A stretch of 64,000 bases of DNA, from NCBI GenBank assembly GCA_030390025.1, contig CM059431.1:132620001-132684000 (forward strand), in the 5' to 3' direction. The stretch is from Squalus acanthias. Taxonomy: Eukaryota. The notes below the pieces were generated by a model. That model was not told the DNA's origin. It did not search any database and was given only the letters and a program-made list of their open reading frames with translations. Made by a program: the position numbers and the translations under genes. Position 1 is the first letter of the stretch, and every line of letters begins with the position of its first letter. Shown here one piece after another: positions 11,410 to 60,989 of this stretch.

Positions 11410-14400
11410 TTATGCCATATTGCATACAAAAGTCAACAAATCACCCTTGTACATTCCCTTAGTGCCTGTATCCTGTGTGCCTTTGCCTGTCCTAGTGCTC
11501 CAACGCAGTGCTACCCCGTTGGCTGCAGCATGGCTGGTGGAAGGCTGCTGACTTTCAGTGGAGGAGACTGCAGATGGCCTTGGAGGATGACCTAGAGTAG
11601 CTCTTGGCTGAGAAGGCCCGGCTGCGACTGCACCATCTTGACATTGACAGCAGCAGTCTGGGCTGGCTGGCTGACACGCAACAGCAAGGGCACTGGTGGA
11701 GTGGCAGGAAGAATTCTGTTTTCCTGAGAGGGGACAGCAGGTTTGTGCTCCATGGAGCCACTGCCACTCCCCTGGGGCGCGCCTCAGCAATCCTAGCAAT
11801 CTGTTGGAAGACAGATTGCTGGACTGCTGTGAAAGCACATTTTCACACTGTAATCCACAGCCATGATGGCAGCAGTCTGAGCTTGCATAGCAGCAAGCTG
11901 ACCTTGCATGACAGCAGTCTGAGCTTCCACTAAAGCACTCATACGGTGGGTGGCTGCTGCTTGTGCTGCAATGGAAGCTGCAATACTGGCCATCAGACGC
12001 TGCATCATGGTTGGGTCCACCAGTGTGTGAACGGTGTTAGCCACCACTTCTATGCTGGAAAGGACGGGCTCCAAGCTCTGCGCAAAGCCCTGTGCCAAGT
12101 TGGTGCTGGTCTCCTCCAAGCTCCTCGACATTGACCACAGGCTTTCTGGCAGGCTTCTAAATGCACCAAGCATTTTGGTTTTGTATACCCATCAGCATTC
12201 TTCTGTAGGCTGCCCCATTGAAATCCTCATCCGAGTCCTCTGCAGAGGAACCCGTCTGTAACCTCACCCTCCAGCGAACTGGCACCAGCACTATCCTTTC
12301 CCTATGCCTTGGCTGCAGCCCACTCGTGCCTGGTGTCTCACCATGTGCAGATCCCACCTCTGATCTATCTTCTAAGATATGCGCAGTGTCAGTATCTCAG
12401 TTGGTAGTTGCGAGTGTGAAATCGAGTGACAGTGCTGTCTCTTCATCATCACTCTCTTGTTGGTGTTCATCCAGGTTGCACCTCTTTGGTATCTGAAAGG
12501 AAAAAGGCACATGGGTAAGGTTGTGGTGCGGGGAGCAGGGGGTGGGGGAAGGAAGAGGTGTATGCTTATACCATCTGCAGCTTGTAAATCAGAAGAGGGT
12601 GTGGGATAAGGGGGAAGTGGGATGTGAGAAAGAGGACACTGTCATTGTCGATGGTTTCAGGCCCGCCACTGCCCACGGTTTTAGCAATGGCCATCCCAAT
12701 AATGGCCAGTGTCTCCTCCATGGGGGTTAGGACATGCAGGCATGCCTGTCCCCTCCGGTTAGCACCTGCTCCCTCAGTTTGTGCGCCACCTTGTCCTGCA
12801 AGAGAGAGAGAAGTATGTCAGTGAATGTCGTACAATCTGTTTGGCTGATGTGGCTGTCATGGTTGAATTGCTGGCAGTGTGTGCAAGCTGTGAGATGTGG
12901 ATATGAAGCTTGCAGCAGTGCTAAGTGTGTGAGAGTAAGGTGAAGCTATGAATGTTAGATATGAGGCATGATTGCTAAGAGATTGTTGGTGGGCGAGTGA
13001 TGGGGATGTGGTGATTTGAGCAGTGGCTAAGGCTACTGGTGCAATTGGTAGGAAATGGCATTTGAAGATGTAGATAAATCACCAGGCCCGGATAAAATGT
13101 ATCCCAGGCTGTTAAGAGAAGCAAGGGAGGAAATAGCGGAGGCTCTGACCATCATTTTCCAATCCTCTCTGGCTACAGGTGTGGTGCCGGAGGACTGCCA
13201 ACGTTGTACCGTTGTACAAAAAGGGAGAAAGGGATAGACCGAGTAATTACAGGCCAGTCAGCCTAACCTCGGCAAATTATTGGAAAAAATTCTGAGGGAC
13301 AGTATTAGTCGTCATTTAGAAAGACATGGATTAATCAAGGACAGTCAGCATGGATTTGTTAAGGGACTAACTTGAGTGAATTTTTGAGTAGGGTCGATAA
13401 GGGTAGCACATTTGATGTGGTCTACATGGATTTTAGCAAGGCCTTTGACATGGTCCCACATGGCTTTTACTTTTCTGACCAGTCTGCCCATGGGATCCAA
13501 GGGAAAGTGGCAAGTTGGATCCAAAACTGGTTCAGTGGCAGGAAGCAAAGGGTAATGGTCGACGGGTGGTTCTGTGACTGGAAGGCTGTTTCCAGTGGGG
13601 TTCTGCAGGGCTCAGTACTAGGTCCCTTGCTTTTTGTGGTATATATTTAGACTTCAATGTAGGGGATAAGATTAAGAAGTTTGCAGATGATACAAAAATT
13701 GGCTGTGTGGTTGATAATGAGGAAGAAAGCTGTAGACTGCAGGAAGATATCAATGGACTGGTCAGGTGGGCAGAAAAGTGGCAAATGGAATTCAATCCAG
13801 AGAAGTGTGAGGTAATGCATTTGGGGAGGGCTAACAAGGCAAGGGAATACTCAATAAATGGTAGGATACTGAGAAGTGTAGAGGAACAGAGGGACCTTGG
13901 AGTGCATGTCTACAGATCCCTGAAGGTAGCAGGACAGGTAGATAAGGCAGTTAAGAAGGCATACGGGATATTTTCCTTTATTAGCTGAGGCATAGAATAT
14001 AAAAGCAGAGAGATTACGCTTGAGCTGTATAAAACACTAGTTAGGCCACAGCTAGAGTACTGCGTACAGTTCTGGTCACAACATTACAGGAAAGATGTGC
14101 TTACACTAGAGAGGGCACAGAGGAGATTTCTGAGGATGTTGCCAGAACTGGAGAATTTTAGTTATGAGGAAATATTGGAGAGGCTGGGGTTGTTTTCTTT
14201 GGAACAGAAGAGGCTGAGGGGAGACTTAATTGAGGTGTATAAAATTATGAGAGGCCTAGATAGAGTGGGGATAGGAAGGACCTATTTCCCTTAGCAGAGA
14301 GGTCAATAACCAGGGGGCATAGATTTAAAGTAATTGGTAGAAGGATTAGAGGGGAGTGGAGGAGAACTTTTTTCACCCAGAGGGTGGTGGGGGTCTGAAC

Positions 14401-34680: not shown

Positions 34681-35134
34681 ATACGATGCTAAAGGCAATT
34701 TGGGGATGTCTGGGCTTTTTCCTTGAGGAAATGTGTCACACTTTCCTCCTCCACTTCTTCCCACTATTCCTTTTGATTTGGGGAAATCAAATGTCCTATT
34801 TAACCTTCCTACGCACCAGGTGATTAGATAATAGAATAGATACTGTAAACTAATTTGTACAATCTCTATGTTTCACTCGTCGTCAAAGACAATGAGTGAC
34901 AGTCATTAGGTTATTCATATAAAATTGATGATGGGTATTCTACAAGCTATTGTTGGCTACAAAAAAGTTAATAGAAACTAATAACTTTGGTTTAAAAGAG
35001 GAAAAAGGCAGACAATTATGCTGGAGATTTTTTTTTTATAGCAATAACATTATGAGGTTGCCAAAATTATCAAATCATATTGAGTGATTAAGAACACAAG
35101 AGTGGTTTCTTATTAACTGACCCCCTGGACACTC

Positions 35135-36830
35135 ACACCAGACCCATGCCCAGCACCGTGTCGTTCACCATACCACACCTGACCCCTGCCCACTCCCGTG
35201 TCGCTCGCCACACCAGACCCCTGCCCAGCACCGTGTCGCTCGCCAGACCCCTGCCCAGCACCGTGTCGCTCATCACACCAGACCCCTGCCCAGCACCGTG
35301 TCGCTCATCACACCAGACCCCTGCCCAGCACCGTGTCGCTCGCCAGACCCATGCCCAGCACCGTGTCGCTCATCACACCAGACCCCTGCCCAGCACCGTG
35401 TCGCTCATCACACCAGACCCCTGCCCAGCACCGTGTCGCTCATCACACCCGACCCATGCCCAGCACCGTGTCGCTCATCACACCAGACCCCTGCCCAGCA
35501 CCGTGTCGCTCATCACACCCGACCCATGCCCAGCACCGTGTCGCTTATCACACCAGACCCCTGCCCAGCACCGTGTCTCTCGCCAGACCAGACCCCTGCC
35601 CAGCACCGTGTCGCTCACCACACCAGACCCCTGCCCAGCACCGTGTTGCTCACCAGACCAGACCCCTGCCCAGCACCGTGTCGCTCATCACACCAGACCC
35701 CTGCCCAGCACCGTGTCGCTCGCCACACCAGACCCCTGCCCAGCACCGTGTCGCTCACCACACCAGACCAGACCCCTGCCCAGCACCGTGTCGTTCACCA
35801 GACCAGACCCCTGCCCAGCACCGTGTCGCTCACCACACCAGACCCCTGCCCAGCACCGTGTCGCTCACCAGACCCCTGCCCAGCACCGTGTCGTTCACCA
35901 GACCAGACCCCTGCCCAGCACTGTGTCGCTCGCCACACCAGACCCCTGCCCAGCACCGTGTCGCTCACCAGACCCCTGCCCAGCACCGTGTCGCTCACCA
36001 TACCACACCAGACCCCTGCCCAGTACCGTGTCGCTCACCACACCAGACCCCTGCCCAGCACCGTGTCGCTTGCCACACCAGACCCCTGCCCAGCACCGTG
36101 TCGCTCACCAGACCCCTGCCCAGCACCGTGTCGTTCACCAGACCCCTGCCCAGCACCGTGTCGTTCACCAGACCCCTGCCCAGCACCGTGTCGTTCACCA
36201 GACCCCTGCCCAGCACCGTGTCGCTCGCCACACCAGACCCCTGCCCAGCACCGTGTCGCTCGCCACACCAGACCCCTGCCCACACCCAGCACTGTGTCGT
36301 TCACCATACCACACCAGACCCCTGCCCAGCACCGTGTCGCTCACCAGATTCCTGCCCAGCACCGTGTCGCTCGCCACACCAGACCCCTGCCCAGCACCGT
36401 GTCGCTCGCCACACCAGACCCCTGCCCACACCCAGCACCGTGTCACTCACCATACCACACTAGACCCCTGCCCAGCACCGTGTCGCTCACCACACCAGAC
36501 CCCTGCCCAGCACCGTGTCGCTCACCACACCAGACCCATGCCCAGCACCGTGTCGCTCGCCACACCAGACCCCTGCCCAGCACCGTGTCGCTCACCACAC
36601 CAGACCCCTGCCCAGCACCGTGTCGCTCACCACACCAGACCCCTGCCCAGCACCGTGTCGCTCACCACACCAGACCCCTGCCCAGCACCGTGTCGCTCAC
36701 CACACCAGACCCCTGCCCAGCACCGTGTCGCTCACCACACCAGACCCCTGCCCAGCACCGTGTCGCTCACCAGACCCCTGCCCAGCACCGTGTCGCTCAC
36801 CACACCAGACCCCTGCCCACTCCCAGCACT
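35135..36830. repeat. GC-rich minisatellite, 30-40 bp variant units, roughly 50 copies
   Basis: Core accagacccctgcccagcaccgtgtcgctc plus optional 5-mers (accac, atcac, gccac, accag, accat). Confidence 0.97.
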
Positions 36831-36851: not shown

Positions 36852-36937
36852 ATGAAGCCGGCGCCGCCGGTGACGAGCAGCCGCTTGTCAAACGCCGCTC
36901 GCGCAGCCGCCACCTCCCAACCGCTTCCTTCAGACAT
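36852..36937 (-). CDS. TGDS: TGDS (dTDP-D-glucose 4,6-dehydratase-like) coding exon 1
   Basis: ATG at 36937; MSEGSGWEVAAARAAFDKRLLVTGGAGF(I) with Rossmann GxxGxx motif; 86 nt; donor GTAGGT. Confidence 0.95.
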
Positions 36938-37404
36938 CTTCACTCGCTGCTTTCCGACGTCGTAAAGCACACACGTTTACAATTCTTTCAAAAGTTAAAC
37001 CTCGGTCCAACCCAACTACAAACTCATTTTTTTACGGTTGAAAATGACAGATTCAACAATTAAAACGGCTCGTGGCATTGCAATGTATTTAATTCCTGCA
37101 TTTTCTGGATGTATATATTTGTTTATCTTTACGACCATTATTTTTCAACCACTTTATGGTTCCGTTTGACACGTAGCAACCGCCGGCGAAGCCGTTCATC
37201 AGAAGATGATCAAAGTGGAGGAGGGGGCCCCGGCCGATGCCGATTGGTTATGATTTCGGCAGAGTGTCGGTATCTGGAGTGAGGAATGGTTATCCTGGGT
37301 GTCAATCACCCGCAGTATCAGGTTAGAGCGAGGTGCAGGACTTTTCCCGCAATAGATGAGCTGCAGGAGCTGGAGAGTTTGGGCTTTTAGTAACCGCTGA
37401 AACA
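36938..37404. promoter_or_regulatory. Bidirectional promoter and 5'UTRs shared by TGDS and GPR180
   Basis: 467 bp between divergent ATGs; CpG-enriched; inverted CCAAT (gattgg) near 37242; same head-to-head layout as mammalian TGDS/GPR180. Confidence 0.75.
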
Positions 37405-37543
37405 ATGGCCCTTTTATTCCTTCTGGCCACTTTTGCGGAACTGGTGTTGCTGATTTGCGAGGGGAAAACAGTGAATGGATTTTTCAGTAGTGATCTCGCG
37501 AGACAGAGTGGAGGGCAGCAAGTTGCTAAATTTCTGTTTCATG
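37405..37543 (+). CDS. GPR180: GPR180 coding exon 1
   Basis: MALLFLLATFAELVLLICEGKTVNGFFSSDLARQSGGQQVAKFLFH(G): signal peptide, then similarity to human GKTLRGSFSS...GQRIGHFEFHG; phase-1 donor GTAGGT; adjacent to TGDS as in mammals. Confidence 0.88.
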
Positions 37544-55660: not shown

Positions 55661-55747
55661 CAAGGCAGAGTATCACCACTTGTGATAGTGCAATCGTCCA
55701 CAATAAGTCCCTGAAGGACGCCACTGCTGTCAATGAAATGAATTGGT

Positions 55748-55759
55748 TGCGCATGCGCA
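55748..55759. promoter_or_regulatory. Perfect NRF1 palindrome upstream of the ROCK1-like exon
   Basis: TGCGCATGCGCA about 200 bp 5' of the ATG in a CpG-enriched patch. Confidence 0.55.
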
Positions 55760-55956
55760 GTTTCTTTTTGGTGGTTCTGAGTGGGGGGAAAACTGTTGGG
55801 TGAAACTATGCTGTGCAGCCGTTTGCAGCGACTGTTTAAAACATCTGTTCGTTGCTCCGTGAAGAGGCTGTCACAGTCATATCAGAAGTGCTTATTTTGT
55901 ACAAGTTCTGTTTACTTTTTAATTGGGATGAAACTTTATAAAATAACGTGGACACC

Positions 55957-56050
55957 ATGTCGTCTGGAGAAAGTTTGGAGGCTCGGTTTGAAAAAAATTG
56001 AATCCATGTTAAAGGATCCCAAGTGCAAAGTGAACAGTGAAAGTTTGCTG
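55957..56050 (+). pseudogene. ROCK1: ROCK1-like first coding exon with a +1 frameshift (pseudo-exon or homopolymer error)
   Basis: Kozak caccATG; MSSGESLEARFEK / IESMLKDPKCKVNSESLL resembles ROCK1 MSTGDSFETRFEKMDNLLRDPKSEVNSDCLL; donor GTAAGT; 94 nt instead of 93 because of the A7 run at 55991-55997. Confidence 0.75.
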
Positions 56051-56499
56051 GTAAGTGTGAAGATTAATGATGAGTTTAATGCATTTCTGCCGAACAGAGC
56101 TGTGTCAGGAAAAGAAAATCTGGGCTAGCAAAACTCAGCAAACGTCGAATTTCATTAATTCTCTTCTCCTTTCCCTTCACACGGAACTTTCGATCCAAAC
56201 AAATAAATCTCCGCAATCCTCCCTCCCCCCCACGGAATTATTATACGTTAATATTAAACCAACCTAGAGCTCCACAGATTTATGCGATATTACGAATAAA
56301 GATTTATGCGCAGAACACGTCTGTGCAGCTTCCGGTCGTTGGCAGCAGTCACTCCGGTTCCTGAATGGCAAGGGTTTTCTTCAGAATGAACTACCTTCTC
56401 AACTCTTTATCCTCCCCTCTCCCTTACTCCGTGTCGTTCATCTCACCCACAACTCTCTGTCCATTCCTATTCGCTCCCCAAAGGGAAAATGGTTAGAGG

Positions 56500-58579: not shown

Positions 58580-60989
58580 CAGGAAACTCTTTGGTATCCG
58601 GCACCGACGGGACCAGGGTGGTGCCGGTTGAATAAAAATTCCGGATGACGGAGAGGGTTATCTACCGAGGCTATTTTTAACCAACAAAAATAAAAAAATC
58701 AAGAAATGTGCAGTATACAGTAATTGGGTACTCACCTACAGAATGTTGTGTTAAATGGATGGTGGAAGATGCTTGATTAAGTACAGTACTGCCAGTTGAG
58801 GGTAATCCATAACTCTAATTACTTAACAGTAAAACAAAACTTATAAACGACTGTATACAGTACTGTAGTTGACGGTACACTTATTCCAAGTCAGCTGGTT
58901 CATCAGGAATATCCATGCCAGCTGGGTCATCAGGATCATGCACTTCCACAGATTCTTCAGGCACTTCCGCTGCTTCGACTCTTTTGGAAGCTTTCTTAAA
59001 CATGCTCCGGATGTCGGCTTGCTTAGTGGACTCTTGCCTTTTCTGTAGAAACGTGGAATGCAGAATATGGAGTTGCATAACTTCTTGGGCAGAGTAGCAA
59101 GGCTGCCTTTCAGCAAATTGGAGGATTGAAGCAAATCCTTCTGCAGCTTTAGCCCAAGAAATCATCTTCTCTTCAGAAATCTCATCCTCTTCACTTTCCA
59201 TCTCACTTTCCTTTTCTTTCTTTGGATTCAAAACACTCAATTATTTCATCATCACTTAGCATATGCACAACACCAACTTCTCTTTCTGCATCAACCCACT
59301 GCTCAATATCACTTTCACTGAGGTGACTTAGAGGGTTTGCTGGGCCTACATTTTTTACCATGCCAGCCATTTCCATTATTGTACTCTTCTTGGGACGAAG
59401 ATTGAACCCATGAAATTCCTCCTCTGAAGAAGAACCTTCAGCAAACATTACAGAAGGCCACAATTTGCGCCAGGCTTGCCTCAGAGTGTGACCTTTCACC
59501 AAGTTCCAGGAACATGCAACATTATATATAGCATCTTTAATACTGTATTCCTTCTGAAATGCGTGAATATTGTCATCTTGGTTTATCAGTTTACGTAGGA
59601 AGTCTTTCTTGTAATGACACTTCAGATTTTGGATAACGCCCTGGTCTATGGGTTGTATGAGAGAAGTTACATTTGGTGGCAAATAAATGGTGAAAATATT
59701 TCCCGAAACCAACTCTGATTCATGCGGATGGGCTCTACAATTATCAAGCAATAAAATGCATTTGCTATCTTCAGGTTTCCCTATTTTACGGAAATGTTCC
59801 CTCACAGATGGAACAAAAATATGATGCAACCAATAGGAGAAGATTTCCTTATCCAGCCAAGCATTTTTTTGATCTTTGTACTCAACAGGTAAGTGCCTCA
59901 CATTTTTAAATGCACGGGGATTTTTATACTTCCCAATAACGAGAAGTTTAACCCGGTGTGATCCAGCAGCGTTTGCACATGTTAGCACGGTTACACGATC
60001 TTTATTTTTCTTGTAACCTGAAGCATTAGCCTCACTAGCCCCAGCAAGTGTCGATTCTGGCAAAACCTCCAAAATAAGCCAGTTTCATCGGCATTATATA
60101 TCTGTGCTGGCGACAAATCATGTTGCTGCACAATCCGATTGAAATAATCGCAGTATTCTTCTGCGGCGTCGTGATCAGCTGATTTCTTCTCCCCAGAAAT
60201 AGAGTCGTCGTATCCCGTGCCGTAACTTGAAGCACGTTAGCCATCCCTCGGAGAAAGCACACTTGTCAGTGAGCTCCATCCTTACGTAGAAATCCTTCGC
60301 TTTCTCGATTAGCATAGGTCCGGAAAGTGGAACACCCTCTGAACGCTTAAGAGAAAACCACTCATAAAGCACGGTATCCAGCTCTTCAAGCTTAGGCTTA
60401 CGAAGCGTACGCCGTTTCTCTACACTCTTAGATGTCTCAGAGCTTGAATAAAACTTGAGCAGCTTATCCTTCTGCGATTTGATGTCGTAGATTGTTGACA
60501 AACCGATTTTGAATTCATTCATAATGTTGATATGCTTCTCTCCCCTTTCTAGTCGTTGGCATATCTCGATTTTCTGTTTTAAAGTGAACACCACTCTCTT
60601 CCTTTTGCTTGGACCAGCTTTTGGGAATTCCATTATGCAAGATGGGGGAGATAATTCATGATAAAGATGGAGAGACACACAGAAAAATGGTGGCTTGGAA
60701 GAGACTACCAGCAGCGCGGGAGACACACAGTAAGATGGCAGATCAGAAGAGACTACCGGCAGCGCGGGAGAATCAGACTCCTGTTACTGCGGTGTTCGGA
60801 CTTCCGACAGCGCCGGGAAGCCGAGTAGTGGCACTTTGGAGAACTACCCCCACTGACTAACTCGGCGTTTGCGGGAGACTCGGACTCTGCAACATTGCCG
60901 GTTATTGGGGAGGAGTTTTCGGAGTATGAATTTTGCCGGTTAATAGAGCATTCTGGATATTTAGGTGCCGTTTAAACGAGAGTTTCCTG
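58580..60989 (-). mobile_element. Tigger/pogo (Tc1-mariner superfamily) DNA transposon, full length, 2410 bp
   Basis: 26-bp imperfect TIRs caggaaactct...cggcacc; TA TSD on both sides. Confidence 0.93.
58881..60633 (-). pseudogene. Tigger/CENP-B-like transposase with about three frameshifts
   Basis: [12 protein letters not shown] (HTH_psq), [15 protein letters not shown] (CENP-B HTH), [27 protein letters not shown] (DDD triad), acidic C-terminus. Confidence 0.92.

Follow-up and report, generated by a model that had tools for sequence, protein, structure and literature searches.

Gene capture by Mutator-like elements (MULEs), in the form of Pack-MULEs, is known from plants and one fly (PMC8277862), and the survey of 100 animal reference genomes (81 of them vertebrate) by Tan et al. 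(2021) reports four multicopy Pack-TIRs and no Pack-MULE (PMC8277862). The true absence of MULEs from vertebrates is listed as an open question by Dupeyron et al. (2019; PMC6446971). Vertebrate repeats filed as MuDR, namely Ricksha and zebrafish Repbase entries (PMC5753468, PMC6446971), were left unmatched to MULE transposases by the same authors, who urged their re-evaluation (PMC6446971). MULE terminal inverted repeats, which span 20 bp to hundreds depending on the group, are described as typically longer than 100 bp (PMC5499845), with groups having repeats of 20-38 bp appearing in Table 1 of PMC6446971, and the transposase is characterised by a D-D-E motif with (C/D)xxH located 15-45 residues beyond the second D, a W ahead of the E, and a zinc finger (PMC5499845). 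The Drosophila Pack-MULE Ssk-FB4 is described as a young element of four copies that carries a near-whole gene and is translated, its MULE assignment coming from duplication and repeat length without a transposase in hand (PMC8277862). In the literature searched (partial coverage, main texts, without Repbase or Dfam), we found no shark MULE and no vertebrate Pack-MULE.

We are highly confident that intron 1 of GPR180 in Squalus acanthias holds a decayed nonautonomous transposon with part of ROCK1 exon 1, likely spread by a MULE transposase with the same ends. As in rice and other plant Pack-MULEs, we observe inverted ends, a 9-bp duplication and 5'-end cargo in the form of a gene fragment with intron sequence, in a nonautonomous element whose copies apparently moved in trans to sites with distinct duplications (PMC8277862, PMC5499845). 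Unlike those plant elements, the shark family has a vertebrate host, inverted repeats of ~22 bp versus more than 100 bp, and one cargo at a copy number of at least 42; its repeats are below the typical MULE length and within the 20-38 bp groups, and its 9-bp duplication lies within the MULE range of 8-11 bp. With Ssk-FB4 it shares an animal host, multiple copies, duplication length (9-10 bp in the fly), 2-bp microhomology at the junctions and a related element near the parent gene (PMC8277862), and it departs from Ssk-FB4 in having a decayed first exon as cargo, about 10 times as many copies and a same-ended MULE transposase in the genome. Like the multicopy vertebrate Pack-TIRs, it acquired host 5'-end sequence, a few hundred bases in length, and transposed repeatedly, whereas the frog Pack-hAT-N8_XT, with the CAPSL 5' UTR, is a hAT element with three copies (PMC8277862). 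It also resembles the vertebrate repeats filed as MuDR and, unlike those entries, has a family transposase that scores above the PF10551 cut-off. Ricksha, for its part, carries captured retroviral sequence.

Aligning seven family loci placed the element limits at 55716 and 56356 of the window (the whole stretch of DNA analysed here, 64,000 nucleotides), with the following features at and around the insertion.

37405..37543, plus strand: GPR180 exon 1, coding part (phase 1), followed by the hosting intron; 87% identity to residues 1-47 of shark GPR180 (P0008)
55707..55715, no strand: left copy of the 9-bp target-site duplication, GTCCCTGAA; 8/9 identical to the right copy
55716..56356, plus strand: complete nonautonomous element, 641 bp, assigned to the Mutator-like class (Pack-MULE); limits are the limits of copy similarity
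55716..55737, plus strand: left terminal inverted repeat, ~22 bp, imperfect; inverted match to the right end
55738..55788, plus strand: subterminal sequence with NRF1-like palindrome (55748); without match to the parent gene
55789..56088, plus strand: captured ROCK1 fragment, made up of the 5' UTR end, the coding part of exon 1 and 38 bp from intron 1
55957..56050, plus strand: ROCK1 exon 1 coding part, 94 nt, with +1 frameshift; 93 nt and open in the parent
56051..56056, plus strand: captured splice donor GTAAGT; identical to the parent donor
56089..56334, plus strand: interior and right subterminal sequence with ETS-like site (56329); common to the ROCK1-free elements L009, L011 and L015
56335..56356, minus strand: right terminal inverted repeat; inverted match to the left end
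56357..56365, no strand: right copy of the 9-bp target-site duplication, GTTCCTGAA; pairs with the left copy

The captured fragment is 94.7% identical to the parent (L016:4944-5242) over 300 bp, and the first-pass annotation was correct in proposing that intron 1 of GPR180 contains a duplicate of the ROCK1 5' segment. It had also read the landmarks accurately (ATG at 55957, GTAAGT donor at 56051, a palindrome of NRF1 type at 55748 and the sequence cttccgg at 56329), as well as GPR180 exon 1 upstream on the same strand, but it overlooked the frameshift, the inverted repeats, the duplicated 9 bp on either side and the multitude of copies, and its options did not include a DNA transposon as the agent of capture and spread. 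Its view that the exon encodes the ROCK1 N-terminus holds for the peptide, which is ROCK1-like, but not for the reading frame: an additional A in the run at 55991-55997 makes the coding part one nucleotide too long and generates a TGA at 55999-56001, codon 15. Sequencing error was rejected as an explanation of this frameshift, since the same additional base recurs in four other copies (L002, L003, L005 and L006). The motifs that had been taken as promoter features of a ROCK1 exon both lie outside the parent-matching segment, and both recur in the ends of transposase-bearing elements, the NRF1-like one in the left end of L046, so that they belong to the transposon and are not a promoter of ROCK1 itself; the left inverted repeat itself recurs on the transposase-bearing elements L045, L046 and L052. 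A processed retrocopy was rejected given the retained intron sequence and the inverted ends, and a CACTA element, considered from the end letters, was rejected on the 9-bp duplication. The 641-bp loaded element is without transposase.

A search of the assembly with GPR180 and ROCK1, as the first-pass annotation had proposed, located both genes. GPR180 exon 2 lies at ~132,697,336 on contig C7, 13 kb beyond the end of the window, and is succeeded by exons 3-8 in their proper sequence, the best protein matches being those of sharks; on the genomic exon map, from which alone the splicing of exon 1 is read, GPR180 is predicted to continue normally past the element. Searching the genome with the PF21892 profile returned C5 loci only, GPR180 not among them. 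The reported absence of both GPR180 exon 2 and ROCK1 exon 2 from the window was borne out by search, and the one loose match to a ROCK1 exon-2 motif in the window (at 12063) has no continuation as ROCK1. The right junction of the element is bridged by public-run contigs from X1 (record 5, with 2 differences) and X5 (record 32), and the left junction by another from X5 (record 25), none of which individually covers the whole element stretch. Since the contigs of X5, coded as another organism, bridge the junctions while differing by 4-5%, the insertion in GPR180 intron 1 is likely common to more than one species. Elsewhere in this intron, minus-strand frames are found at 59203-60084 and 60175-60783, the former (293 residues) with a strong DDE_1 match, of the pogo/Tigger transposase type. 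At 35092-36830, a GC-rich tandem repeat with units of ~25-30 bp adjoins a minus-strand first exon at ~36860-36947, which we take to be that of TGDS.

The parent locus, L016 on contig C8, matches the element interior only and is without the inverted end. Its exon 1 coding part is open over 93 nt, with the same donor as the window copy; exon 2 lies ~63 kb downstream and the kinase exons come thereafter, including one of 47 residues that is identical to human ROCK1 at 47/47. The 27-residue exon-2 piece scores slightly higher on ROCK2 than on ROCK1, and a profile search of the genome with PF08912 (Rho_Binding) gave 0 matches, the domain being split over exons. Among the 12 PDB matches listed for the parent exon, 10 are to ROCK1 and none to ROCK2. 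Judged by these sequences, the parent gene is identified as ROCK1, on a different contig from the window. Long contigs in X1 and X3, two runs whose identity as RNA is a guess, represent parent alleles without the additional A; they end at the donor and extend ~580 letters further upstream, from which we infer that a longer 5' UTR contributed its last part to the cargo, the ROCK1 promoter lying outside the capture.

A DNA search of the genome with 55690-56400, in which the best 40 of 806 candidates were scored, gave matches at 40/40 loci on many contigs (38 loaded copies, 1 parent and 1 empty element). Exact 20-mer searching produced 24 matches including the parent (control, 0), with 4 further loaded copies among them, so that at least 42 ROCK1-carrying copies are dispersed over the genome; the overlap of the two lists suggests 46-48. 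Across 23 two-ended elements, flank identity peaks at 9 bp with a mean match of 0.79, compared with 0.47 at 8 bp and 0.48 at 10 bp, and 17 of these elements match at 7 or more of the 9 duplicated positions (mismatched flank pairs as control, 8/506). The 6/23 below this level include two that fit 10 bp better and four that fit poorly (L017, L026, L034 and L035). Among loaded copies, 14/20 reach at least 7/9, every duplication being different, and among 15 further loaded loci both ends are present in 8, five of which reach at least 7/9. The 16-letter end core has 586 exact occurrences in the genome (control, 0), and since only 18/56 ends of loaded copies retain it exactly, these counts suggest a family of ~900 elements. 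On contig C1, a sample of 32 loci with exact cores included 1 that carries ROCK1. We also observe a second ROCK1-carrying branch (L027, L030-L035, L089 and L120-L127), which has lost the donor together with the second half of the exon and, in the members read, has a 27-bp minisatellite.

With respect to the source of mobility, a profile search of the genome with PF10551 revealed 8 matches above the cut-off, and in the DNA examined family ends lie near three of them (the third with a left end alone) and near none of the other five. L046:1992-7804 is flanked by a perfect duplication of 9 bp, carries both family ends and contains a PF10551 match, with a gap of 352 N separating the transposase from the right end; L045:776 to L108:7955 likewise carries both family ends, with a duplication of 7/9, no N and a PF10551 match above the cut-off. 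The transposase frame matches MULE, ZSWIM1/3 RNaseH-like and SWIM families in Pfam and no hAT family, and by eye it has D, D, CxxH, W and E in MULE order, with the C 21 residues after the second D. Because a decayed transposase of MULE/SWIM type is encoded by these two elements, which share the family ends and have duplications of 9 bp, we assign the family putatively to the Pack-MULEs, on the combined indication of Pfam domains, motif order, ends and duplication. Transposase DNA matches 21 genome loci, 15 of them at 78% identity or more; no intact copy was found, all copies read being broken, so that it is the shared ends that point to mobilisation by a MULE transposase. The nearest named proteins of the transposase are shark 'ZSWIM3-like' entries, and three such proteins of Heterodontus francisci (P0001, P0002 and P0059) are 52-64% identical to it and have the same Pfam domains, but are annotated as host genes. 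One vertebrate genome thus holds the full series of transposase-coding, cargo-free and loaded element together with the parent gene, which opens the vertebrate-MULE question to direct testing and suggests transposons among the shark genes annotated as 'ZSWIM3-like'. The significance is tempered by the seemingly inert state of the window copy and by the possibility that the family may already be filed in Repbase or Dfam.

In the longest copies, 358 bp derive from the parent (227 bp before the ATG, the 93-bp coding exon and 38 bp of intron), and the window copy retains the last 299 of these. Comparison with the cargo-free elements of ~475 bp (L009 and L015; L011 is also without cargo) indicates that the cargo stands in place of ~60 bp of their interior, with a 2-bp overlap of shared bases at each of the two capture junctions, although microhomologies of two bases carry little weight. 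Of 36 copies, 14 have their end at, or no more than 2 nt from, one position of the parent, and the four longest share a starting base. As breakpoints are common to the copies unless later deleted, a single capture would account for the loaded copies, in which 358 bp of ROCK1 replaced ~60 bp of element interior. The route may have been repair of a break or a template switch, with DNA or unspliced RNA as the source, by analogy with what is described in PMC8277862, while spliced mRNA is excluded as the cargo source by the intron piece. Successive master copies would then have lost pieces, through a left deletion and one added base in the window branch and through half-exon loss plus a minisatellite in the other branch; the loaded copies would have moved in trans and drifted neutrally, the window copy being spliced out with its intron.

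A loaded copy with an intact exon frame, L017 (contig C8, ~55,638,300), lies 208 kb from ROCK1, a proximity with a chance of ~0.5%, and a family right end is found inside a ROCK1 intron (L060:4250). Together, these two observations hint that the capture happened near ROCK1. L017 is without a clear duplication and the tree leaves its place open, the tree of the captured piece being poorly resolved and not revealing the oldest copy. Dating in years was dropped, as the per-generation rate given in PMC10587355 yields no plausible age.

Several other explanations of the locus were weighed against a decayed Pack-MULE. The first-pass annotation had offered an additional ROCK paralog, a rearrangement breakpoint or an assembly mis-join, for which the out-of-place position is the sole argument and which we regard as extremely improbable. 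A paralog is at odds with the frameshift and with the lack of downstream ROCK exons in the window, the true ROCK1 lying elsewhere; a breakpoint, with the colinearity of GPR180 exons 1-8 across the element; and a mis-join, with the target-site duplication at the ends, an N-free window, the dispersed copies and the public contigs that bridge both junctions. Merlin is among the superfamilies with 8-9 bp duplications, as is hAT, and an element of either kind could have made the capture, the link to MULEs being coincidence or nesting. This we consider very unlikely: the short inverted repeats beginning GG would fit, as would the CxxH and W that are also present in hAT (PMC5499845), but the duplication peak is at 9 bp and not 8, two separate transposase-bearing insertions lie between family ends, each with a duplication of its own, a third shows the left end, and the Pfam matches are to MULE and SWIM rather than hAT.

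The same element could also act as a portable first exon, with a promoter in its left end and the captured donor spliced to host exons, or, in a variant of this reading, its copies could yield antisense or small RNA against ROCK1. The cargo does comprise UTR, ATG and donor, in sense orientation just after a left end with NRF1-/ETS-like motifs, and the window copy is sense to GPR180 with its donor kept; however, the three ATGs that are open to this donor are in phase 0 and GPR180 exon 2 requires phase 1, which also argues against the chimeric product raised by the first-pass annotation, at least as a protein, and the sole acceptor-like site would add 269 nt, shifting the frame. Short family-copy contigs occur in runs guessed to be RNA (X2, records 11-13), whereas the long contigs of X1 and X3 show the alleles of the parent and not those of the window copy. 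Pack-TIRs and Pack-MULEs are said to change host transcripts (PMC8277862), but 9/28 copies here are without half of the exon and the donor. On balance, a portable exon appears quite unlikely. Among the same 28 copies, ATG, frame and donor are kept in 2 and broken in 17; pN/pS is 0.75 over 36 copies that are not independent (27 synonymous and 82 nonsynonymous differences), and the median non-CpG distance of copies to the parent is 0.053. Returning to the decayed Pack-MULE, its copies appear to drift neutrally, and the window copy is probably inert and most likely removed with the GPR180 intron. An unlikely extension is that a true Mutator family of sharks distributed the beginning of a host kinase gene in the form of a prefabricated first exon (transposon end with NRF1/ETS-like motifs, 5' UTR, ATG and splice donor), some of the 40-50 copies now initiating or rewiring host transcripts or making RNA that regulates ROCK1, as is the case for Pack-MULEs in rice.

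Further elements were observed around the family. L044 and L050 represent a second MULE transposase lineage, 83% identical mutually and ~70% identical to the family transposase, with no matching ends. An exact end core on contig C2 (183,374,569) lies 7 kb from a transposase match at 183,381,945, the pair being likely a further full-length element. L083 contains a 942-bp element in which 468 bp of the transposase 3' part lie between family ends (L083:361-818 of the element), and which is a deletion intermediate. Two more same-ended subfamilies, of the L095 and L094 types, measure ~620-660 bp and have other interiors at 40 or more copies each; these interiors are possible further captures, and their parents were not found among the best 40 of 69 and the best 40 of 273 candidates, respectively, with 12 inspected in each case. 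On contig C3, six L095-type copies are clustered within 63.8-64.7 Mb, four of them with equal score, in what looks like a tandem or segmental duplication.
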